Positions 17,043-34,923 of a stretch of DNA of 64,000 nt are shown piece after piece. A program made the translations under genes and the position numbers. The stretch is from Gemmatimonadota bacterium (GTDB taxonomy: Bacteria; Gemmatimonadota; Gemmatimonadetes; Palauibacterales; Palauibacteraceae): NCBI GenBank assembly GCA_021295785.1, contig JAGWBR010000006.1, positions 17,229-81,228 on the forward strand. The letters are read 5' to 3'. A model generated the notes under the pieces. It ran no database searches and was not told the origin of the DNA. It saw only the letters and a program-made list of their open reading frames with translations. How positions within the stretch are numbered: the stretch's first letter is position 1; every line of letters starts with the position of its first letter.

Positions 17043-18775
17043 GCGCTCGTCACGCGAAGTACCTCTTCCAGGGTAGTGGTTCCCCGCACAGCCTTTTTCA
17101 GGCCGTCGCGGCGAAGAGTCACCATGCCCTCTTCTACTGCACGCTGTTTGATCTGGTGCGCGGGGGCACGGTCCAGCGCCAGCTGCCTGATGGCCCTGGA
17201 CATCGGCATCACTTCATACAGACCGCGCCTCCCGGAGAACCCCGTGAGCCCGCACGCGTCGCACCCGGCGCCCCGCCGGAACCGGGCACCCGACGCCTCG
17301 GCCGGGTCCATTCCCGCTTCGCGCAGGGCCCGCGGCAGGTAGCGGGTTTCCCGCGAACAGTTGCCACACACGCAACGCACGAGACGCTGGGCTGTTACCA
17401 GGTTGATCGCGGCCGCGGCGTTAAACGGCTCCACCCCCATGTCCACTAGACGCGTAACCGTGGAGGCAGCATCGTTGGTGTGCAGGGTCGACAAGACCAG
17501 GTGCCCGGTCAGGGCTGCCTTCACCGCTATGCTGGCGGTTTCCAGGTCCCGTATCTCGCCGACCAGGACGATGTCAGGGTCCTGCCGAAGGAACGACCGC
17601 AGAGCAGCGGCGAAGGTCAGACCAATCGCGGGACGGACCTGTACTTGATTGACACCGGTCATGTTGTATTCGACCGGGTCCTCCGCCGTTTGGATGTTGA
17701 CTCCGTCGGTGTTGAGCCGCGCCAGCACGCTGTACAGGGTCGTGGTCTTGCCCGATCCCGTCGGCCCGGTAACCAGCACCATCCCGTGCGGATCTTCCAG
17801 GGCCGTCATGAATTCGCGTTCGGCCCGGCGCCCCATTCCGAAGGCACCAAGGTCCATTGCGAGCGTGCCCCGGTCGAGAACTCTCAACACGATCTTCTCG
17901 CCAGACAGCGTGGGCAGCGTAGACACACGCATGTCCACCGCCCCGTCGGGCCGCGTCACTTTGATTCGGCCGTCCTGGGGCAGTCTGCGCTCGGCGATGT
18001 TGAGGTTGGCCATGATTTTCAACCTGGATGACAGACTGGCCGCCATTTCCAGTGGCGGAGCCGAGACCTGCTGCAGCGCGCCATCGATCCGGTACCGTAC
18101 GCGCAGCTCCCGCTCGTACGGTTCGATGTGGATGTCCGATGCTCCCCTTGATATCGCGGATTCGAGCATTTCGTCGATGAAACGAACCGCCGGCTCGTCA
18201 CCCAGTTCCACCCAAGCTCCGCGGGGCAGGTCATCGCGGTCGTCCGGGCCGCTCGGGTCGCTCCGCACCTCTGGTTTGCCGACCTCGTCCAGTTCTTCGA
18301 TCAACCGGGTGACCGCGACTTCCGGGGTTGGATACTGCCTCTCGATAAGCTCCAGAAGCGCCATTTCTCCCGCGGCGGCCGGTTCGATCTCCATCCCCGC
18401 AATAAACTCGAGGTCCTCGACCAGGCGGAGGTTATCAGGCTCACCCATCGCCACAACCAATCGGCCGGCCCGGCTCGATACCGGGCAAAGAAAATTCCTG
18501 TGCGCGAAGGTCCCGGGCACCCGGTGCGCCACCGAATCCGGCACCCCGGAAGCAGCCTGCCCGTTCAGTTCCAGCACCTGAACACCCATGACTTCGCCAA
18601 CCACACCGGCGATGGCGGCCTCCGACGCAATGCCCAGCGCCGCCAGGCAGTACCCAAGACGCATCCCGCTCCGTGCCCGTTCGGCCAGTCCCTGTTCGGC
18701 CTGATCGGTCGTGATCGCACCCCGGCTGGTTAGCTCCGCGAGCACGGCGCGCTCCGCCCGTGTCAGCCCGCGCAC
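17039..18775 (-). CDS. pilB: Type IV pilus assembly ATPase PilB (GspE family)
   Basis: 578 aa. N-terminal T2SSE_N-like domain. Walker A VLVTGPTGSGKTTTLYS. Tetracysteine CVCGNC...CDACGLTGFSGRRGLYEVM. Confidence 0.93.
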   Translation of the reverse strand: MRGLTRAERAVLAELTSRGAITTDQAEQGLAERARSGMRLGYCLAALGIASEAAIAGVVGEVMGVQVLELNGQAASGVPDSVAHRVPGTFAHRNFLCPVSSRAGRLVVAMGEPDNLRLVEDLEFIAGMEIEPAAAGEMALLELIERQYPTPEVAVTRLIEELDEVGKPEVRSDPSGPDDRDDLPRGAWVELGDEPAVRFIDEMLESAISRGASDIHIEPYERELRVRYRIDGALQQVSAPPLEMAASLSSRLKIMANLNIAERRLPQDGRIKVTRPDGAVDMRVSTLPTLSGEKIVLRVLDRGTLAMDLGAFGMGRRAEREFMTALEDPHGMVLVTGPTGSGKTTTLYSVLARLNTDGVNIQTAEDPVEYNMTGVNQVQVRPAIGLTFAAALRSFLRQDPDIVLVGEIRDLETASIAVKAALTGHLVLSTLHTNDAASTVTRLVDMGVEPFNAAAAINLVTAQRLVRCVCGNCSRETRYLPRALREAGMDPAEASGARFRRGAGCDACGLTGFSGRRGLYEVMPMSRAIRQLALDRAPAHQIKQRAVEEGMVTLRRDGLKKAVRGTTTLEEVLRVTSA

Positions 18776-25269: not shown

Positions 25270-26406
25270 ATGCCGGAGGTGGGCCGCGAAGGCCAGGAGC
25301 GACTGGCCGGGGCCAGCGTGCTTCTGATCGGCGCGGGCGGGCTGGGATCTCCCGCCGCCCTCTACCTGGCCGCCGCGGGCATCGGGCGCCTAGGCATCGT
25401 TGACGATGACGAAGTAGAGCTCTCCAACCTCCAACGCCAGGTCATCCACGATACCGAATCCGTGGGCACCCCCAAGGTCGAGTCCGCCCGCGGCAGGCTG
25501 GCCGGCGTCAACCCGCACATACGCGTTGAGACCTTCCGCACGCGCCTGCGATCCGAAAACGCCCCCGACGTGATGGCCGGCTGGGATTTTGTGGTGGACG
25601 GCAGCGACAACTTCCCGACGCGCTATCTGGTCAACGACGCCTGCGTCATGCTCGGAATCCCTTTCGCATACGGGGCGGTGCTGAGATTCGAGGGACAGGC
25701 GTCGGTGTTTGCGGCGGAGGACGGCCCGTGCTACCGGTGCCTTTTCCGCGACCCGCCGCCGCCCGAGCTGGCACCCAATTGCGCCGAGGCCGGCGTGTTG
25801 GGCGTGGTCCCCGGCATGATCGGCTCGATTCAGGCCTGCGAGGCGATCAAGTGGATATTGGGAGAAGGGGAATCGCTGGTTGGGCGGCTTCTTCTGGTGG
25901 ACGCGTTCCGCATGACTTTCAGGACGCTGACAATCCGACCAGACCCGGATTGCGTCGTTTGCGGCAACGAGCCGACGCTGACCGAACTCGTTGATTATGA
26001 ACATTTCTGCGCGTCCGCCGGCGAGCCTGCCGGGGAGTCAGCGGACGCCGGCGGTTCCCGATCCGGAACGGAGGACGCAATGGTTGCAGAGATCGACGTA
26101 CACGACCTGCGGGCGTTGGTTGAAGCCCGCGAGGACTTCCAGCTGGTTGACGTGCGCGAAGACTACGAGTGGGAGATTTGCAACCTCGGTCACCTCGGTG
26201 CCCAGCTCGCGCCCATGGACCAACTGGCCGAGCTGGTACCGAAACTGGACAGGAACAAGCCGGTGATCGTGCACTGTCGAACCGGACCGAGGGGTGCAAG
26301 CGCGGCGGCCTGGCTTCGCCTGTCCGGCGTCGACGACGTGCGCAACCTCCGCGGGGGCATCATCGCCTGGGCCGAGGAGTTTGACCCGGACATGGTGGTG
26401 TATTGA
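25270..26406 (+). CDS. moeB: MoeB/ThiF-type adenylyltransferase fused to a C-terminal rhodanese domain (MoeZ-like)
   Basis: VLLIGAGGLGSPAALYLAAAGIGRLGIVDDDEVELSNLQRQ, the CYRC...C..C zinc motif, and a rhodanese active-site loop VHCRTGPRG. The family-conserved N-terminus (LSARELARYDRHI) lies upstream of ATG 25270, so the true start is probably non-canonical (see findings). Confidence 0.88.
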   Translation: MPEVGREGQERLAGASVLLIGAGGLGSPAALYLAAAGIGRLGIVDDDEVELSNLQRQVIHDTESVGTPKVESARGRLAGVNPHIRVETFRTRLRSENAPDVMAGWDFVVDGSDNFPTRYLVNDACVMLGIPFAYGAVLRFEGQASVFAAEDGPCYRCLFRDPPPPELAPNCAEAGVLGVVPGMIGSIQACEAIKWILGEGESLVGRLLLVDAFRMTFRTLTIRPDPDCVVCGNEPTLTELVDYEHFCASAGEPAGESADAGGSRSGTEDAMVAEIDVHDLRALVEAREDFQLVDVREDYEWEICNLGHLGAQLAPMDQLAELVPKLDRNKPVIVHCRTGPRGASAAAWLRLSGVDDVRNLRGGIIAWAEEFDPDMVVY

Positions 26407-27362
26407 TCCGAATCGCGTCCATGCTGGCCTCGGGCACGGAAATCGTCTGCGCCCTTGGACTTGAAGACTCGCTGGTGGCGATTTCCCACGAATGCGACTA
26501 TCCGGCCGGTGTGATGGACCGACCCCGTGCGAGCCGGTCGCGGTTTGATCCCGGGGGCATGACCAGCCTTGAGATCGACGAAGCCGTGCGCCGGACCATG
26601 CTCGAGTTCGGCAGCCCCTATGAGATCGATCTGGGCGTGTTGGCCGACGTGCGGCCCGACATCATCCTTACGCAGGCGGTGTGCGAGGTATGCGCCGTGC
26701 CGACTCCGGGCGTCGAGCAGGCAGTGGCCGAGAGCGGCCTCGAGGCCCGGGTCCTATCGCTCGATCCGCACGACATCCCGGGCATCCTGGGCTCGGTGGG
26801 CCAAGTCGCCGATGCCTGCGAGGAGGCGGGCCATGCCGGGGCCGCCGCTTCCGCGCACCAGGCCGTGGCCGGAATGGAAGCCCGGCTGGCTGCCGTTCGT
26901 CAAGCGGTGGAAGGGGCCGACCGACCGCTGGTGCTTGGGCTGGAGTGGCTGGACCCCCCGTTTCTGCCGGGTCACTGGGTCCCCGAGATGATTGACCTGG
27001 CGGGGGGGCGTTGCGCCGCCGGGCCTCCGCGGAGGCCGTCCCCGCAGGTCGGATGGGAGGAGGTTCGCGGGCTGGATCCCGACACGTTGATCGTGATGTC
27101 ATGCGGTTTCGGGGTCGAGCGCACCCTCGAGGATGCCGAAGCCGCCTCGCACCACCTGGTGCGCGCCGCCCCGCGGGCCATTCGCCAAGGGCGGAGTTGG
27201 GCGGTCGACGGTTCGTCCTACTTCAACCGGTCGGGTCCCCGGGTCGTTGACGGGGTGGAGATCCTGGCGGGGATTCTGCACCCGGATCGCTGGCCGGCAC
27301 CTGCTCCCGGGGTGGCACAGGTCTGGACTCCCGAACTCCAACGGGTCGGGGCGGCGAAGTAG
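26403..27362 (+). CDS. Periplasmic-binding-protein type 2 (Fe-siderophore/cobalamin BtuF-like fold) homologue without a signal peptide
   Basis: 319 aa. MIRIASMLASGTEIVCALGLEDSLVAISHECDYP...RPDIILTQ... is the typical class III SBP start, but there is no leader. The TTG start overlaps the moeB TGA (TTGA). Confidence 0.65.
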   Translation: MIRIASMLASGTEIVCALGLEDSLVAISHECDYPAGVMDRPRASRSRFDPGGMTSLEIDEAVRRTMLEFGSPYEIDLGVLADVRPDIILTQAVCEVCAVPTPGVEQAVAESGLEARVLSLDPHDIPGILGSVGQVADACEEAGHAGAAASAHQAVAGMEARLAAVRQAVEGADRPLVLGLEWLDPPFLPGHWVPEMIDLAGGRCAAGPPRRPSPQVGWEEVRGLDPDTLIVMSCGFGVERTLEDAEAASHHLVRAAPRAIRQGRSWAVDGSSYFNRSGPRVVDGVEILAGILHPDRWPAPAPGVAQVWTPELQRVGAAK

Positions 27363-29164: not shown

Positions 29165-30261
29165 AAAACCTCGCTTAGCACTGCCAGCAGCGCCTCGAGT
29201 TCCTCCATCGTGTGCTCTCCCATGTGCCCGATTCGGAAGGTCGGTTCCTTCAGTTTCCCGTACCCGGCCGCCACGGCGAACCCGCGGCTTTTCATGCGCC
29301 CCTCCACCTCCGGCCCCGTCAGTCCCTCCGGCAACCCGATCGCGGTTACCGCGGGCGACCTGTAACCCTCCGCGGCAAACACGCCCAACGGCCGGCCCGT
29401 CGCTTCGGCCGTGTCGGCCACCCACTGCCACGTGCGCTCCGCCATGGCGGTGTGCCGGGTCCAGCGCGCCTGAAGACCTTCTTCGTGGATCCGCTCCAGC
29501 TGCCGCTCGAGCGCGAAGAGAAGCGACACTGCCGGCGTGGTCGGCGTCTGCCACTTCTTCATGTTCTTTTCGTGGTTCAGCAGATCGAAATAGAACCCGC
29601 GGTTGGGCGTGTTACGTGCGCGCTCCAGCGCCCGGTCCGAGGCCGCGGCGAACGCCAGCCCCGGGGGCAGCGCAACCGCCTTCTGCGATCCCGTCAGGAG
29701 AAAGTCGATGCCCCATTCGTCCATCTCGATCCGAGCAGCCGCCAGCGAAGAAACCGCGTCCACCGCAATCAACACATCGTCAAATTCCCGCACTACCGCC
29801 GCAAGTTCCCTGACCGGGTTGAGGACTCCGGTCGAACTCTCCGAGTGGACCACAGTCACCAAGTCGTAGCGGCCCGGGTCGGCGGCCAGGGCTTCGCGCA
29901 GTTGCTCGGGCAAGAGGGGGTCCCCCCACTGCGCCTCCAGCGTGTCCGCCGCGCGCCCGGTAGCCGTCGAGATGTTGTAGAACCGCTGGCCGAACGAACC
30001 GTTGGTCAGGCACAGGGCTCCGCGGCCGGTCAAATTCGTGATCGCGGCCTCCATCATTCCAGTGGCCGACGACGTGGAAATGTAGACTGGCCGAGATGTG
30101 CGGAGCAGCGCCGACAATTTCGGCTGCATCCCCTGAACGAGGGCCGACACCTCGGGGCTCCTGTGGCCCGCCACCGGCCGCTGCATGGCCTCGAAAAGGT
30201 CGTGGGGGACTTCGGTCGGACCGGGCAGGAAGAACTTCCCGAAAGATCGCAATTGGCTCAT
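29161..30261 (-). CDS. Class V (AGXT-type) aminotransferase, probably acting as phosphoserine aminotransferase given coupling to serA
   Basis: Starting from ATG 30261: MSQLRSFGKFFLPGPTEVPHDLFEAM...SSTGVLNP...GSQKAVALPPGLAF (PLP Lys). 4-nt overlap with serA. Confidence 0.8.
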   Translation of the reverse strand: MSQLRSFGKFFLPGPTEVPHDLFEAMQRPVAGHRSPEVSALVQGMQPKLSALLRTSRPVYISTSSATGMMEAAITNLTGRGALCLTNGSFGQRFYNISTATGRAADTLEAQWGDPLLPEQLREALAADPGRYDLVTVVHSESSTGVLNPVRELAAVVREFDDVLIAVDAVSSLAAARIEMDEWGIDFLLTGSQKAVALPPGLAFAAASDRALERARNTPNRGFYFDLLNHEKNMKKWQTPTTPAVSLLFALERQLERIHEEGLQARWTRHTAMAERTWQWVADTAEATGRPLGVFAAEGYRSPAVTAIGLPEGLTGPEVEGRMKSRGFAVAAGYGKLKEPTFRIGHMGEHTMEELEALLAVLSEVL

Positions 30262-30447
30262 GGGCGCATACTTTATGCCTCGCGGCCGCCGGTGGCTACC
30301 GTGGCGGTCCGGGGTTGCCACCCGGAACACCGAACTTGGTTAATTTCCGGGAGCAACCGCGTGCCGCGGCGGGGCATGAACAGCCCGGCACCAGCGGATG
30401 GCATTTTGGCGAAACCGGGCCGGCGGTCCGGGACGCATCGGAGGCGC

Positions 30448-30717
30448 ATGCGGTATTTCACAACCACACAGGTATTGCCAGAGGATGTGCTTTCGAGGGC
30501 CAGGGACTTCATGTCGGCCAATTCATCGCTGACGGTTCGCGAGGAAGACCCCGCCAGCGTGACGTTTGCCGGCGCGATCGGCGTGGCGCGTTTCTCGGTT
30601 GACCGGCACGGCGGACAAACCAACGTCCATCTTGAGACCGACCGTGTCGCCGGGCTGGACGTGACCGACGTGGCCCGGCGTTTCCTTTATTCACTCAGGG
30701 AGGCCAACCGTGGCTGA
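30448..30717 (+). CDS. Hypothetical 89-aa protein (first gene of a coupled trio)
   Basis: ATG 30448: MRYFTTTQVLPEDVLSRARDFMSANSSLTVREEDPASVTFAGAIGVARFSVDRHGGQTNVHLETDRVAGLDVTDVARRFLYSLREANRG. This is the last part of ORF 29212..30717. An alternative start is ATG 30376. Its stop overlaps the next gene's start. Confidence 0.5.
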   Translation: MRYFTTTQVLPEDVLSRARDFMSANSSLTVREEDPASVTFAGAIGVARFSVDRHGGQTNVHLETDRVAGLDVTDVARRFLYSLREANRG

Positions 30718-31000
30718 GCCCGCGCGGGGGAATACTACTGTACGCCTGATCATGCCGGACCGGTGGCTCGAACACGTCGCCCGTGTCCCGTCGTCGGCAA
30801 CAGTAGCCGAAATCAAGGAAATGGGTGTCCGCGCCATGCTCCAGCGCGGCTCCGAAGACCCCGGCACTTACTACGTGGAACACCGGGAGAAAGAAGTCCG
30901 CGACGAGACCGTGACTTTGGACGGACTCGGCGTGAGGGCCAGGGGCATTCTGTCGATCAGACCCTACGACATCGGCCACCCGCGGGAGTTCGCGGGCTGA
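30710..31000 (+). CDS. Hypothetical 96-aa protein with a ubiquitin/beta-grasp-like sequence pattern
   Basis: GTG 30710 is preceded by AGGGAGG (30697-30703). TVRLIMPDRWLEHVARVPSSATVAEIKEMGVRAML...YYVEHREKEVRDETVTLDGLGVRARGILSIRP. The fold assignment is inferred from pattern only. Confidence 0.55.
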   Translation: MAEPARGNTTVRLIMPDRWLEHVARVPSSATVAEIKEMGVRAMLQRGSEDPGTYYVEHREKEVRDETVTLDGLGVRARGILSIRPYDIGHPREFAG

Positions 31001-31008
31001 TTTCTCCC

Positions 31009-32706
31009 TTGGGTCCCGGCGAGTTCGAAGCGCTGGCTCAACTTCGGGGGCCAGTTGCCCGGGGACGCCATCTGGCACTGGTTGCGGCCGAGGGGGGATG
31101 CGTTGAGGCGGTCTACGCGGCGGCGGTGGTCAGTGACCTTGGCTTGGCGGATGGTGCCGAGGCGGACTTTGCTGATCAAGACGCCGCTGACTCCGCCGGT
31201 GCCGGACTGGATTCACGGAGCATTCGGGCGGTCGTGCTGGCCGCGACCGACGATCGCGCCTGGCGGTGCGCCCGGGGCATGCGGGCGGCCATGGACGAAA
31301 ACCTCCGGGACCGCTGCCCGGTCGTTGTGATGCCCGGCGACATGCCTTCGCCCGCGGCGATGGCCGGAGCGAGCGTAGCTGTCGGGACTCCCGTGACGGT
31401 TCTGGAGGCGCTGACCTCCGGCCGGATCTCGGGGTCGGAGGTTCGTTCACTGGTCATGGATAACATCGCGGCGCTCGACCCTGCGTGGCCGGCGGTCGAT
31501 GCTCTTCTCCAGTCAACCGGCCGGGACATTCGGCGCGTGGCTACCGGTCCCCGGTACGACGAACGGTTCGGGGACCTGATGAAACGTTGGCTGCCCCGTG
31601 CCCGGCGGTGGCCGTTGGAGTTGTTCGAGCCGGCGCCGGCCCCTGCCGACTCACCGGCCGGGCCTTTCCTGCGGACTCTGGTTCGGGCCAGCGGCCGGGG
31701 GCGCGTCAGCGGGTTTGCCGGGATGGTTGGTCGGCTCTCGGCGGCGGGCAAGGAAGTGAGCGTAGTGGTCGCGTCTGCACCCAGGGCGTTTGAGGTGGTT
31801 TCATCGACACTGGCCGCCGCCGGGTTCGGTGGTATCTCCGTTGCCCCCCTGACCGATGCCCCGATGCCCGCTCCCACCGGGGCGGAGGATGACGTCGGGG
31901 CAGCGGCTGATGACAATGGCGCACCGGCGGCCGACGAAGGCGGCGCGGCGCGGGCCGTCGTGCTATACGGTCTCCCGCGTTCGGCTGAGGCACTCGCAAG
32001 GGCACTCGGCGAGGCCGGTCAGCGGTACGCGGTTGTGGATGTCATCCACATGCAACAGCTGGAGATCATGGCCCGGCAGCTGGGGTGGCGGGTCGCGCCG
32101 TTGGGCGACGGGCCGGTGCCCGAGTTTAGCTCGGGGGTCGAGGAGTTCCGCAACCGAATTCGCGACGCGGTCCGATCGGAGGACCTTGCTACCGGTGCCC
32201 TGCTGCTCGAACCGGTGCTTGCGGAGTACGGGGCAGCCCGTGTCGCAGCGGCAATGGCCTCTTTGCTCCGGGGGACGGACATCCGCGGCGCAGGCGGAGA
32301 CGGACCGCCAGACAGGTCCCGTTCAGCCAAGACCGGGCGAGACCGCCAACCAGGCGAAGGCCAGGCGAACCGCGCGGCTCGCACAGGGTGGCAGACCGTC
32401 TTCGTGAACGTGGGGGAACGCGACGGCCTCGGACCCGGTGACGTGGTGGGGGCCATTACGGGCGAAACAGACGTCAAGGCTGCCCAAATTGGCCGTATCC
32501 AGATCAAACCGGGGTTCGCGCTGGTTCAGGTGAACGCCGGCGTCCTGGAAGAGGTCGTTGCCGGCCTGAACGGGACCATGTTGCGGGGCAAGGAAGTCAT
32601 GGCTAGGCCAGACCGGGGGCCATCGACCTCCCGACCCTCCGGCCCCGGCCGACCTTCTCGCTCTCCGCCCCGCCAGCGCCGCGACAAGCCGCGCAACCGG
32701 CGGTAG
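31009..32706 (+). CDS. DEAD-box helicase homologue with degenerate ATPase motifs and a retained C-terminal DbpA-type RNA-binding domain
   Basis: TTG 31009 (alternative CTG 30997, which has GGGAG 8 nt upstream). GTPVTVLEALTSGRISGSEVRSLVMDNIAAL parallels [32 protein letters not shown] of DbpA. The C-terminus GWQTVFVNVGERDGLGPGDVVGAITGETDVKAAQIGRIQIKPGFALVQV is a DbpA RBD. Ends in an Arg/Pro-rich tail. Confidence 0.75.
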   Translation: MGPGEFEALAQLRGPVARGRHLALVAAEGGCVEAVYAAAVVSDLGLADGAEADFADQDAADSAGAGLDSRSIRAVVLAATDDRAWRCARGMRAAMDENLRDRCPVVVMPGDMPSPAAMAGASVAVGTPVTVLEALTSGRISGSEVRSLVMDNIAALDPAWPAVDALLQSTGRDIRRVATGPRYDERFGDLMKRWLPRARRWPLELFEPAPAPADSPAGPFLRTLVRASGRGRVSGFAGMVGRLSAAGKEVSVVVASAPRAFEVVSSTLAAAGFGGISVAPLTDAPMPAPTGAEDDVGAAADDNGAPAADEGGAARAVVLYGLPRSAEALARALGEAGQRYAVVDVIHMQQLEIMARQLGWRVAPLGDGPVPEFSSGVEEFRNRIRDAVRSEDLATGALLLEPVLAEYGAARVAAAMASLLRGTDIRGAGGDGPPDRSRSAKTGRDRQPGEGQANRAARTGWQTVFVNVGERDGLGPGDVVGAITGETDVKAAQIGRIQIKPGFALVQVNAGVLEEVVAGLNGTMLRGKEVMARPDRGPSTSRPSGPGRPSRSPPRQRRDKPRNRR

Positions 32707-32719
32707 CGCCCCCCTCACC

Positions 32720-34204
32720 TCACCCGCTGTGGAACGGTGCCCATTTCTCCTTGGGTGAGGGCGGAGTCAACAAGCTCACAACCACAAGCATCAGCGTCGA
32801 GACCAGGACACCTGGAATCACGATGTAATCGGTAGACGCGAAGTTGAACGTGTCGCCGCCCAGCGAAACCTCGAAACTGATTCCCAGCCGGGAGAGCAGG
32901 GTGATTCCCAGGATGGACCCCAGCCCTCCGGCAAGGCAGGCAACCCCGCCCTGCGAAGTGACCCGTTTCCACAAGAACGCGGCCAACAGCGCCGGAGTCA
33001 GGCTCGCACCGACCAGCGAATAGGCGAACAGCGCCATCGCGAGCACGCTGTCCGACAGGGTCAGCGCCGCCAGCCCCAGTCCGCCGAATATCACAACGAA
33101 CATTCTCTGCACCAGCAACTTCCTGCTGTCCGAGGCCCCGGGGTTGATGAACCGTTCGTACACGTCGCGGCTGGCCCCGGTGGAAGAAACCAGCAGGAAC
33201 GTGTTGCCCGTTGAAATCACAATGGCCACCGCGGCCGCCAACAGCACCGCGCCCATCGCCGTGGGCAACCCATTGGCCGCTATGTGAAGGATGATCGACT
33301 CAGCCGCAGCACGCCCCTCGACAACCACCGTCGCGGGATCGGCGAGTTCCGGGAACACGGCCCGGCCGGCTATCGCGGTCAGGGCCAGGGCAGTCTCAAT
33401 TACGACCACGCCCAGCAGCATCCACACCACGGCCTTCTTCGCCGATCCCGCGTCCTGGGCGGACGAGAACTTCTGGTACATCCCGCTCTCCCCCAACAGC
33501 AGTAGGAACGTGGGTGCCGCCACGCCGAACACCCACAACACGTTGTGGCCTCCCAGAATGCTGGTGTGGTCGGGCGGCAGCTGCGACACGATTTCTGCAA
33601 CCCCGCCGTTGGAAAACACCAGATAGGGCAGCGCGAACAGGATTCCCAGGGTGATGATCACGCCGTTGAACATGTCAACGCTGACAATCGACACCATGCC
33701 CGCCAGCGCGGTGAACACCACGATGACCGCGGCCGTGATCAGCATCCCCTCCACATCGGAAATCGTGTTGGGGAATACGATGGACAGGATCCACCCCCCG
33801 CCCCGGAACTGGTAAGCCGCGATGGTGACGTAGGCGATTATCACCGCCAGCGTGCCCAGCGCCCGCGCCGCGGCGTTGTACCGCTGCTCAAGCAGGTCGG
33901 GCACCGTGTACTTGGCGATAGAGCGCACTCGCGGAGCAAGGTACGCCGCAACGACCAGCCCCACCCATGCCCCGAACGAGAACCAGAGTTCCGCGATCCC
34001 GGTGGTGTAGGCCAAGCCCGCTCCGCCAAACAGCGACCCCGACCCGATCCAGGTGCAGACCAGCGTTCCCACCAAGAGCGGCACCGACACGTTCCGGCCG
34101 GCCACCATGAAATCCGCGTGGCTGCGGACCTGCCGCATCCGCCACACACCAACGCCGATTATCACCAACGGCCAGACGATGACAGCGATGGTCAGCAGGT
34201 TCAT
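32720..34204 (-). CDS. Sodium:solute symporter family (SSF) transporter
   Basis: Starting from ATG 34204: MNLLTIAVIVWPLVIIGVGVWRMRQVRSHADFMVAGRNVSVPLLVGTLVCTWIGSGSLFGGAGLAY. About 13 TM segments. ATGA overlap with pspA. Confidence 0.88.
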   Translation of the reverse strand: MNLLTIAVIVWPLVIIGVGVWRMRQVRSHADFMVAGRNVSVPLLVGTLVCTWIGSGSLFGGAGLAYTTGIAELWFSFGAWVGLVVAAYLAPRVRSIAKYTVPDLLEQRYNAAARALGTLAVIIAYVTIAAYQFRGGGWILSIVFPNTISDVEGMLITAAVIVVFTALAGMVSIVSVDMFNGVIITLGILFALPYLVFSNGGVAEIVSQLPPDHTSILGGHNVLWVFGVAAPTFLLLLGESGMYQKFSSAQDAGSAKKAVVWMLLGVVVIETALALTAIAGRAVFPELADPATVVVEGRAAAESIILHIAANGLPTAMGAVLLAAAVAIVISTGNTFLLVSSTGASRDVYERFINPGASDSRKLLVQRMFVVIFGGLGLAALTLSDSVLAMALFAYSLVGASLTPALLAAFLWKRVTSQGGVACLAGGLGSILGITLLSRLGISFEVSLGGDTFNFASTDYIVIPGVLVSTLMLVVVSLLTPPSPKEKWAPFHSG

Positions 34205-34923
34205 GGGGAATCCCCTTCCTCGCGCATCCTGCGCTTCAGTTCTTCCAGCAATTGGTCGGCCCGGCTCTCCCGGCTTCCCTTGTCCATCTTCTCCCACGCC
34301 TCATCCAAGCCGGGGTCGGCAGTCTGGGCACCGCCACCGCCCGCGGCCCGGCTGCCCTGGCTGCCAAGGCCCAGCTCCTCGTCTAGTTCGCGGCGGGCAC
34401 GATCGGTGGCGGCCGCGTCGTCAATGGTCTCGGCGGCCCGGTCGAAGGCGTCAAAGGCGTCGGCTGCGTCCAAGCTCTGTTGTCTGGCCGCGGCGGCCTG
34501 CCCCCGGGCCAGAATACCGCCCTTGTTCGCGGTGGCCTCCTTCAGCTGGGCAGTCATCCGGCGCACCTCGGCCCGCTGCTCCAAGAGGTCGGCCTTGGCG
34601 GTTTCGACCTTCATCACCTGAACCTCGAGGCGGCTGCGGGCCCGCTCCGCAAACTCAAGCCCGACACGGGCAGTTTCATCGTCCCCCACCGCGACCGCCT
34701 TCCCGGCCCGGCGTTCGGCGGTCTTGATTTCACCGGTCAGTCGGTCCGCGACGGCGATCAACTTCTTCACATCCTGTTCCAGCCGGGTGCAATCGGCCTT
34801 GGCCTGGATCAGCTCCGACCGCATTCCCCTCAGCAGGTCTTCAACATCCTCGCGCCTGAAACCGCGCTTCGATTCCATTTCGTCCAGCGCGGATTCAATT
34901 CTGTCTCTGAGTCTCCGGAACAT
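34201..34923 (-). CDS. pspA: PspA/IM30 family protein
   Basis: 240 aa, all-helical with coiled coils. MFRRLRDRIESALDEMESK...DVEDLLRGMRSELIQAKADCTRLEQDVKKL...ERRAGKAVAVGDDETARVGLEFAERARSRLE. Confidence 0.8.
   Translation of the reverse strand: MFRRLRDRIESALDEMESKRGFRREDVEDLLRGMRSELIQAKADCTRLEQDVKKLIAVADRLTGEIKTAERRAGKAVAVGDDETARVGLEFAERARSRLEVQVMKVETAKADLLEQRAEVRRMTAQLKEATANKGGILARGQAAAARQQSLDAADAFDAFDRAAETIDDAAATDRARRELDEELGLGSQGSRAAGGGGAQTADPGLDEAWEKMDKGSRESRADQLLEELKRRMREEGDSP

Follow-up and report, generated by a model that had tools for sequence, protein, structure and literature searches.

A predicted ATPase-dead branch of the DeaD/DbpA family in Gemmatimonadota and the two small proteins encoded beside it

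The Closest Described Systems and the Locus under Study

The DEAD-box proteins have been studied almost entirely as ATP-driven RNA remodellers, and the locus considered here encodes a member of this group whose motor is predicted to be lost. The locus lies on the forward strand of a 64,000-nucleotide stretch (hereafter, the window; positions 17,229 to 81,228 of the contig JAGWBR010000006.1, assembly GCA_021295785.1) from a Palauibacteraceae bacterium of the phylum Gemmatimonadota, which abounds in soils and sponges, is still poorly characterised and has such cultured members as Gemmatimonas. Three genes follow each other head to tail on the + strand: gene 1 at 30448..30717, encoding 89 amino acids (aa), with the stop TGA at 30715-30717; gene 2 at 30710..31000, 96 aa, with the GTG start at 30710 and TGA at 30998-31000; and gene 3 at 31009..32706, 565 aa, with the TTG start at 31009. 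Judged by its aligned motifs, gene 3 appears to be an ATPase-dead derivative of a DeaD/DbpA-type DEAD-box helicase, and it is preceded by a small alpha/beta protein (gene 1) and a ubiquitin-like protein (Ubl; gene 2).

The nearest relatives of gene 3 are the helicases DeaD/CsdA and DbpA, with which it shares the homologous RecA1 domain, the collinear order of motifs, the DeaD-dimerisation-like segment before the RNA-binding domain (RBD) and the sequence GAITGE within the RBD. However, gene 3 is devoid of the ATP motifs Q, I, II and VI and of the coupling motifs III and V, and its RecA2 domain is shortened and is not recognised as Helicase_C. The closest comparable pseudohelicase is eukaryotic: Utp25/Def is a DEAD-box pseudohelicase of the small-subunit processome, essential in ribosome assembly (PMC9539457). 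Both proteins combine a DEAD-box fold with dispensable or degenerate helicase motifs, and Utp25 is a structural factor in ribosome biogenesis; unlike gene 3, it has no DbpA RBD, shows no specific sequence kinship with the Gemmatimonadota protein, and has a known function, while that of gene 3 is proposed here from its domains.

Concerning gene 2, the closest described protein is YukD, a non-conjugated Ubl thought to be an assembly factor (PMC1779556). The YukD/EsaB proteins and gene 2 have in common the predicted beta-grasp without a Gly-Gly terminus, and one protein of the gene 2 sister family scores above the threshold of the Pfam YukD model, whereas gene 2 itself does not match this model, has no type VII secretion genes near it and bears a tail of its own. 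The pair of genes 1 and 2 may be compared with the operon of the START-domain protein RatA/YfjG and the Ubl RnfH, located next to smpB in beta- and gammaproteobacteria (PMC1779556); a role of RatA at the ribosome is disputed (bioRxiv 10.64898/2026.05.04.722385). In both cases, a small protein of putative helix-grip type comes first and a free-standing, non-conjugated Ubl second, next to the gene of an RNA-binding factor, that of translation in the proteobacterial case. The likeness is organisational only, as gene 1 encodes 89 aa against about 150 aa of the START domain and matches it weakly, and gene 2 does not match RnfH.

Literature searches returned no bacterial DEAD-box pseudohelicase, but only Utp25, Deinococcus PriA and unrelated cases, and no published description of the three-gene set was found, in line with the initial annotation of the window, made from the nucleotide sequence alone, whose author knew of no such composition. 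The new elements are a pseudo-enzyme branch of the DeaD/DbpA family and two unannotated families of small proteins, which are of interest mainly for the specialists in RNA helicases, pseudoenzymes and prokaryotic Ubls. A phylum-wide and strongly conserved descendant of the DEAD-box proteins that is devoid of the motor and keeps the RBD of rRNA type would represent a natural experiment on the non-catalytic DEAD-box parts.

The Loss of ATPase Motifs and the Preserved Domains of Gene 3

The gene 3 protein is identical to an NCBI entry named 'DbpA RNA binding domain-containing protein'. The profile of its family (29 members) matched in the PDB the structures of DbpA (7pli, E=4.9e-39), DeaD (5gju, E=3.9e-25) and CshA (5ivl, E=1.6e-22), with the motif positions of the family being collinear, position by position, with the solved DEAD-box helicases in the profile alignment. 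The motifs of gene 3 itself were called in the alignment against bona fide actinobacterial DEAD-box proteins. The Q motif, present in these active relatives, is absent; motif I, AATGTGKT in the active relatives, is EGGCVEA without the lysine (31090..31110, + strand); motif Ia, PTRELA, is ATDDRA (31243-31260); motif Ib, TPGR, is GTPVTV; motif II, DEAD, is MDNI (31456..31467, + strand), with the first Asp kept and the catalytic Glu lost; motif III, SAT, is ATG (31540-31548); the motifs IVa-V, about 35 residues, give place to a 36-residue Ala/Asp/Pro insert; and motif VI, HRIGRVGR, is ARALGEAG, with both arginines gone (31996-32019). Thus, the collinearity with DbpA/DeaD helicases, which the initial annotation had read by eye, the replacement of each ATPase motif and the low-complexity insert at the expected site of motif V were all borne out by the alignments. 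A Walker A motif elsewhere in gene 3 was also looked for, and none was found anywhere in the whole open reading frame (ORF); the Pfam search with the protein itself revealed neither a DEAD nor a Helicase_C domain. Since the P-loop lysine, the Glu of the DEAD motif, the motifs V and VI and a part of RecA2 are gone, ATP hydrolysis by gene 3 is predicted to be lost, and on these sequence grounds the protein cannot be filed as a helicase. Across the family, the motif II position is D-[DGNEQ]-x-x, the first Asp (D151) being invariant.

The domains of gene 3 are preserved to a different extent. The RecA1-like domain (aa 1-205; 31009..31623, + strand) has lost the motifs Q, I and II, and retains in part the RNA-contact motifs Ia and Ib, as ATDDRA and GTPVTV. 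It ends with a family-specific basic motif RARRWP (31597..31614, + strand), which is near-invariant in the clade of the window protein (clade A, described below), with R197 and P202 invariant and A198-W201 conserved at >=90%, and which a regular expression recovers in most clade-A loci. The RecA2 remnant (aa 206-376; 31624..32136, + strand), without the motif IVa-V segment of about 35 residues and without motif VI, contains the insert (31843..31950, + strand) at the site of the lost segment, the insert length varying in the family. The DeaD-dimerisation-like domain (aa 377-423; 32137..32277, + strand) was found with the Pfam model DeaD_dimer at E=0.0019, sub-threshold in gene 3. The RRM-like, DbpA-type RBD (aa 463-533; 32395..32607, + strand) matches PF03880 at E=5.4e-20 and 71.7 bits against the curated cutoff of 25.6, with the full model covered, and holds the invariant D-x-x-GAITGE. 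The protein ends with an Arg/Pro/Ser-rich tail (aa 537-565; 32617..32703, + strand).

Among the 29 family members, Pfam detected DbpA in all (29/29), DEAD in 16/29, DeaD_dimer in 10/29 (best E=4e-5) and Helicase_C in none (0/29). The column conservation decreases from the RBD (0.75) to the dimerisation-like domain (0.66), RecA1 (0.59), RecA2 (0.50) and the linker (0.42), the RecA2 remnant being the least conserved folded part. Selection, therefore, acts on the RNA-binding and dimerisation parts, with partial preservation of the RNA-contact motifs of RecA1, and not on a catalytic core. The C-terminus described in the initial annotation was confirmed as to the intact RBD, while the Arg/Pro-rich tail proved to be particular to the window orthologue and is missing in 27 of the 28 other aligned members. 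Likewise, the relation to DbpA holds for the RBD type, while the architecture, with a dimerisation-like domain before the RBD, is DeaD/CsdA-like rather than that of DbpA proper. At the insert site (columns 365-400 of the family alignment), the proteins P0012, P0019, P0022 and P0034 from the sponge-associated Palauibacter carry variable acidic repeats of the type ETDDGAAE/ETDGG; low-complexity acidic loops are either tolerated here or favoured by selection.

The Gene 3 Family and the Order of Motif Loss

A large protein collection yielded 56 homologues of the gene 3 protein, all named ones being from Gemmatimonadota and likewise called 'DbpA RNA binding domain-containing protein' by NCBI, and 80 genomic loci were retrieved with the family profile, of which about 70 have the degenerate form. 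A neighbour-joining tree by Kimura distances, to be used as a rough guide only, grouped the Gemmatimonadota proteins in four clades, monophyletic with respect to the active actinobacterial DeaD. Clade A (the window protein, Ca. Palauibacter and others) has lost the Q motif and the P-loop lysine, and its DEAD position is degenerate. Clade B, represented by the pseudo-helicase ORFs of the loci L055, L056, L057, L063, L075-L077 and L081, keeps the Q motif (PTALQ) and an intact P-loop ASAGSGKT (ASAG[SC]GKT), with VDG[VA]S at the DEAD position. Clade C (Gemmatimonadaceae and Longimicrobiales) keeps the Q motif, with GPGSGTLV at the P-loop and VDQA at the DEAD position, and in clade D all the three sites are more divergent.

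The motifs V and VI are missing in all four clades and, therefore, the competence for hydrolysis looks to have been lost in the Gemmatimonadota ancestor, with the nucleotide-binding motifs decaying later and unevenly; the clade-B protein may be an ATP-binding, non-hydrolysing intermediate. As the clades preserve the intermediates of motif loss, namely, the Q motif and P-loop in clade B, the Q motif only in clade C and neither in clade A, the order of the loss can be reconstructed. The family is phylum-wide in Gemmatimonadota, and the locus as a whole is best read as a vertically inherited module, specific to this phylum, around the pseudo-helicase. The consideration of gene 3 as a pseudogene or decayed helicase was rejected in view of its deep conservation and domain-specific constraint.

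The Ubiquitin-Like Protein of Gene 2 and Its Tail

Fifteen homologues of the gene 2 protein were found, with 55-99% identity. The Pfam and NCBIfam searches gave nothing meaningful, with no Pfam match at E<=1 and, hence, none to YukD (PF08817) or RnfH. The AlphaFold2 (AF2) model, built from a shallow alignment, has a mean predicted local distance difference test (pLDDT) of 57.8, with a clear beta-beta-alpha start and a disordered tail, only the first half being well formed; the top 50 PDB matches of this model in Foldseek are nearly all of beta-grasp proteins, such as TmoB, SUMO1, ubiquitin, UBX and Hub1, at E>=3.7e-3. The gene 2 profile compared directly with the PDB gave weak Ubl matches only (DDI2 UBL, E=0.24), and its exhaustive comparison with 1.84 billion representatives revealed only 25 relatives, which include a group of 86-aa proteins from Gemmatimonadales ending with RRRRPVR. 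One of these Gemmatimonadales Ubls is named 'EsaB/YukD family protein' by NCBI, one, P0094, passes the Pfam YukD model (30.9 vs 27 bits), and several members touch other UBL models; the family profile matched in the PDB a 'ubiquitin-like protein' (5zmb, E=1.8e-6), then ubiquitin (1e-3) and ISG15. The gene 2 family aligns with the Gemmatimonadales family over the residues 5-83 (hhalign 98.8%, E=5e-17). Since gene 2 is homologous to the family that matches YukD, 5zmb and ubiquitin, it is assigned, transitively through the Gemmatimonadales family, to the ubiquitin-like beta-grasp proteins as a distant relative of the YukD type. The ubiquitin-like hydrophobic pattern recognised in the initial annotation is, therefore, supported by the profile chain and by Foldseek, and gene 2 adds to the stand-alone ubiquitin-fold proteins of bacteria a member with an unusual, invariantly Gly-terminated tail.

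This tail, RPYDIGHPREFAG (aa 84-96; 30959..30997, + strand), is a 13-residue add-on beyond the region aligned by hhalign and is missing in the Gemmatimonadales Ubl family. The family has here the signature R-x-[YF]-D-x-[GD]-H-x3-[FY]-x-G, the stop coming directly after the Gly, with R, D, H and the terminal G invariant in 33/33 distinct tails of clades A and B; the terminus is [FY]-x-G and not Gly-Gly, as in the conjugatable Ubls and sulfur carriers. The small protein abutting the pseudo-helicase bears a P/A-Y-[DE]-x-G-[HD] tail, be it gene 2 (clades A and B) or a gene-1 paralogue (clade C), whereas the Ubl of the Gemmatimonadales loci (termed clade E; 80 metagenomic loci, L085-L164), not beside a helicase, is without it. 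The motif is short and the likeness faint, so that it may serve as a lead only.

The gene 2 profile also matched, many times with a short stretch, the very large proteins P0084 (5185 aa), P0087 and P0097; in P0084, there are 12 such stretches, the best one matching the positions 14-31. These matches are probably repeat or compositional.

The Small Alpha/Beta Protein of Gene 1

The gene 1 protein had four homologues in the protein search, and in clades A, B, C and E its homologues precede gene 2 or gene 3. Its AF2 model (pLDDT 88.4) has the topology beta-alpha-beta4-alpha, and Foldseek gave for it weak matches at E ~1e-3 (>=6.5e-4): the KA1 domain of Chk1 (TM 0.68), the N-domain of BamC and SRPBCC/START-type proteins. 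No Pfam or NCBIfam match was found for gene 1, and the family profile had no credible match in the PDB and Pfam. Its assignment to KA1, BamC-N or SRPBCC was rejected, as the likeness is weak and of fold level only. By its model, gene 1 represents a new small alpha/beta family, KA1/helix-grip-like and specific for Gemmatimonadota. An alignment across four clades has only A18, G42, G45 and T64 as invariant residues, and the His/Asp-rich motif is confined to clades A and B; the protein looks like a binding or structural one rather than an enzyme. The gene-1 paralogues of clade C are extended at the C-terminus by an invariant LPY[EQ]PGD, after which xGGPGxGEP is often found; this extension is faintly similar to the R[AP]YDxGH tail of gene 2. 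They precede the helicase in the loci L039-L049, L052, L054, L059-L061, L071, L072 and L080. The interpretation of genes 1 and 2 as a toxin-antitoxin pair was rejected, for they are single-copy, stand in a conserved core chromosomal context and are syntenic across the phylum.

The Linkage of the Three Genes

The coordinates given in the initial annotation, together with the signals of coupling, were reproduced on the sequence: the TGA of gene 1 and the GTG of gene 2 overlap, the two ORFs sharing 8 nt; a Shine-Dalgarno-like AGGGAGG, read from the sequence, is located inside the 3' end of gene 1 (30697..30703, + strand), 6 nt upstream of the GTG; and the TGA of gene 2 is separated from the TTG of gene 3 by 8 nt. 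Because of this head-to-tail layout, the three genes are very probably co-expressed in the source genome.

Wherever a clade-A locus extends far enough upstream, hidden Markov models find the genes 1 and 2 ahead of the pseudo-helicase, with their order and orientation unchanged (E 1e-26 to 1e-52), and the same search recovers them in all clade-B loci. The distance from the stop of gene 1 to the start of gene 2 ranges from overlap to about 110 nt. The direct packing of gene 2 and gene 3 (<=151 nt) was found only in the window and in the loci L003/4, L016-18, L023 and L057. Thus, both small genes are conserved in the relatives, and the adjacency recurs in many genomes, including the subclades with different flanking genes; the coupled trio recurs too, yet in its tight three-gene form it is a minority arrangement, the stable unit being the translationally coupled pair of gene 1 and gene 2 (Ubl). 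In the locus L021 (3323-4033), genes 1 and 2 form one continuous ORF with a linker of about 25 residues, the sole case among about 45 loci, which may reflect a natural fusion or else an indel in the assembly. The full trio was also met in L028, a metagenome-assembled genome labelled Akkermansiaceae with all neighbours Gemmatimonadota-like; this contig is probably mis-binned.

The syntenic order in clade A is ThiF-rhodanese, PBP-like, serA, serC-like, gene 1, gene 2, gene 3, SSF transporter, PspA-like and CopA. In clades B and C, serA, serC, the PspA-like gene and CopA are absent from the fetched flanks, and gene 1 (in clade B, together with gene 2) still precedes the helicase. Clade C has the gene-1 paralogue alone, without a Ubl, directly upstream, its ORF overlapping or abutting the helicase ORF in most loci, which makes gene 1 the more constant partner of the helicase. 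Since clades A and B stand on opposite sides of the deepest Gemmatimonadota split in the neighbour-joining tree, gene 1-gene 2-gene 3 is probably the ancestral order. Near the clade-D pseudo-helicases, neither gene 1 nor gene 2 is present, while in clade E a gene-1 homologue is placed directly upstream of the Ubl in 75/75 informative loci. In several long contigs of clade E, the pair is followed by a gene of the histone deacetylase (HDAC) family and preceded by beta-propeller genes; in L101 (5355-9959), the gene-1-like and Ubl genes are followed by the HDAC-family, enolase-superfamily and PriA genes.

The Possible Role of the Locus and Competing Explanations

The RBD, the dimerisation-like domain and the RNA-contact parts of RecA1 are preserved without the ATP motor, from which it may be inferred that gene 3 acts as an ATP-independent RNA-binding scaffold or clamp. 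Its target would be, by ancestry and analogy with DbpA/DeaD, rRNA or other structured RNA. The universal coupling of genes 1 and 2, their single fusion and the independent existence of the pair argue for a heterodimer, which might serve as an adaptor or regulator of the pseudo-helicase, and the 13-residue Gly-terminated tail of gene 2 could, speculatively, be a contact element. Taken as a whole, an RNA- or ribosome-binding scaffold with a two-protein adaptor is given an even chance of being the right explanation. The inference of the initial annotation, namely, an RNA- or ribosome-binding pseudo-helicase working with a small Ubl-like partner, is thereby supported in part.

A number of observations weigh against it. 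The gap between gene 2 and gene 3 is 1.5-2.3 kb in 27 of the about 35 clade-A relatives, where it holds an opposite-strand gene of about 1.5 kb (in L001, a minus-strand Na/Ala symporter gene), and about 0.9-1.1 kb in clade B, where it holds a gene of about 0.9 kb; in L014 and L015, an inversion separates the two genes. Such insertions and inversions mean that a strict operon is not required. The whole 12-kb neighbourhood is syntenic within clade A, so that the adjacency there is not independent evidence. The pseudo-helicase was met in 0/17 clade-E loci with >=2.5 kb downstream, so that the pair, existing there without it, has its own function. Nucleotide binding may matter in a part of the family, as the Q motif and GSGKT are kept in clade B. 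Furthermore, gene 2 has a weak AF2 model (pLDDT 57.8), the docking of its tail is a speculation based solely on the conservation and the short likeness to LPY[EQ]PGD of clade C, and both the interaction of the three proteins and the RNA binding by gene 3 are inferred.

These data would be also accommodated if the adjacency was inherited synteny without functional link, with genes 1 and 2 forming a separate two-protein unit and the pseudo-helicase acting alone or as a heterodimer partner that regulates an active DeaD via the dimerisation-like domain, the second most conserved region of gene 3. The opposite-strand gene frequently placed between gene 2 and gene 3, the inversion in L014/L015, the clade-E pair standing alone beside the HDAC-like and PriA genes, and the clade-D pseudo-helicases without either small gene are in favour of this possibility. 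However, it appears rather unlikely, because the link persists in clades B and C despite all other neighbours being different, in most clade-C loci there is overlap or direct contact between the gene-1 paralogue and the helicase ORF, and clades A and B share the gene order and orientation across the deepest split.

More far-reaching consequences would follow from gene 2 being an activatable Ubl modifier or sulfur carrier, with its terminal Gly adenylated by the product of the ThiF+Rhodanese gene at 25270-26406, gene 1 as its partner or target, and the pseudo-helicase as the substrate, delivery platform or an unrelated neighbour. All 33 distinct tails end in Gly at a fixed spacing from the invariant R, D and H and the F/Y, and the tail is predicted to be flexible, with pLDDT <50 for the residues 87-96. 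Among the eukaryotic Ubls, there are those with a single terminal Gly preceded by an aromatic residue (ATG8/ATG12 'FG', UFM1 'VG'). The terminus of gene 2 is F-x-G and not GG. The ThiF+Rhodanese gene (MoeZ-type, E1-like) stands 4 kb upstream of the trio and is syntenic, upstream of serA, in >=10 clade-A relatives; however, three unrelated genes lie between, the whole block is generally syntenic, and the gene was not found in the clade-B loci. Moreover, no E2, JAB/MPN, MoaE, ThiG or CysM gene occurs within about 12 kb of the trio, the homologous Gemmatimonadales Ubl ends with RRRRPVR, and the closest recognisable family, YukD, is non-conjugated (PMC1779556). A modifier of this kind is, therefore, improbable, and its most explicit form, in which gene 2 with a new F-x-G end is activated by the MoeZ-type enzyme and, jointly with gene 1, targets or employs a pseudo-helicase bound to RNA or the ribosome, is highly improbable; if true, a whole bacterial phylum would have a Ubl pathway not known before and linked with RNA or ribosome biology. 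That gene 3 is still an enzyme, by migrated or non-canonical residues or by an active site completed in trans by gene 1 or gene 2, is hardly credible, in spite of the Q motif and intact GSGKT of clade B, the invariant D151 and the relocation of catalytic residues that the review PMC10211241 describes for some pseudoenzymes, since the window protein lacks the Q motif, P-loop lysine, catalytic Glu, motif V and motif VI arginines and has about 35 RecA2 residues deleted, Helicase_C is undetectable in 29/29 members, and gene 1 has no invariant polar residues across the clades that could serve catalysis.

Expression Signals and Neighbouring Genes

The G+C content is 62-70% throughout the window. The TTG start of gene 3 at 31009 is the same as in the NCBI model P0001; it has no independent support, and the orthologues are about 20 residues longer at the N-terminus. 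The sigma-70 promoter scan found no promoter. A GC-rich hairpin CCCGCGGGAGTTCGCGGG, followed by the T-rich run CTGATTTCTC (30979..30996, + strand), coincides in part with the final codons and the stop of gene 2, right in front of the TTG of gene 3. This terminator-like site may serve for attenuation between the two genes or have arisen by chance, and it is not significant alone, as 2 such sites were found in the region against 2.5 expected from shuffles. The Rfam scan of 29500-33500 gave a single sub-threshold chance match (Ms_AS-1, E=0.31), and an RNA element as the explanation of the locus was rejected on this ground; an anti-phage defence system was rejected too, PADLOC giving no match for any of the three proteins.

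The locus is set in a conserved housekeeping neighbourhood. The type VII secretion genes (FtsK-like EssC, WXG100) were not found among the neighbours in the window or in the scanned clade-E loci. The ORF at 34201-34923 on the - strand encodes a coiled-coil-looking protein of 240 aa, which keeps its place between the SSF transporter and CopA in almost every clade-A locus; it has no Pfam match at E<=1e-5, its label 'PspA-like' coming from the sequence character only. On the other side of the trio, the ThiF+Rhodanese gene is oddly coupled to a Peripla_BP_2-like gene (26403-27362), whose start it overlaps by 4 nt.

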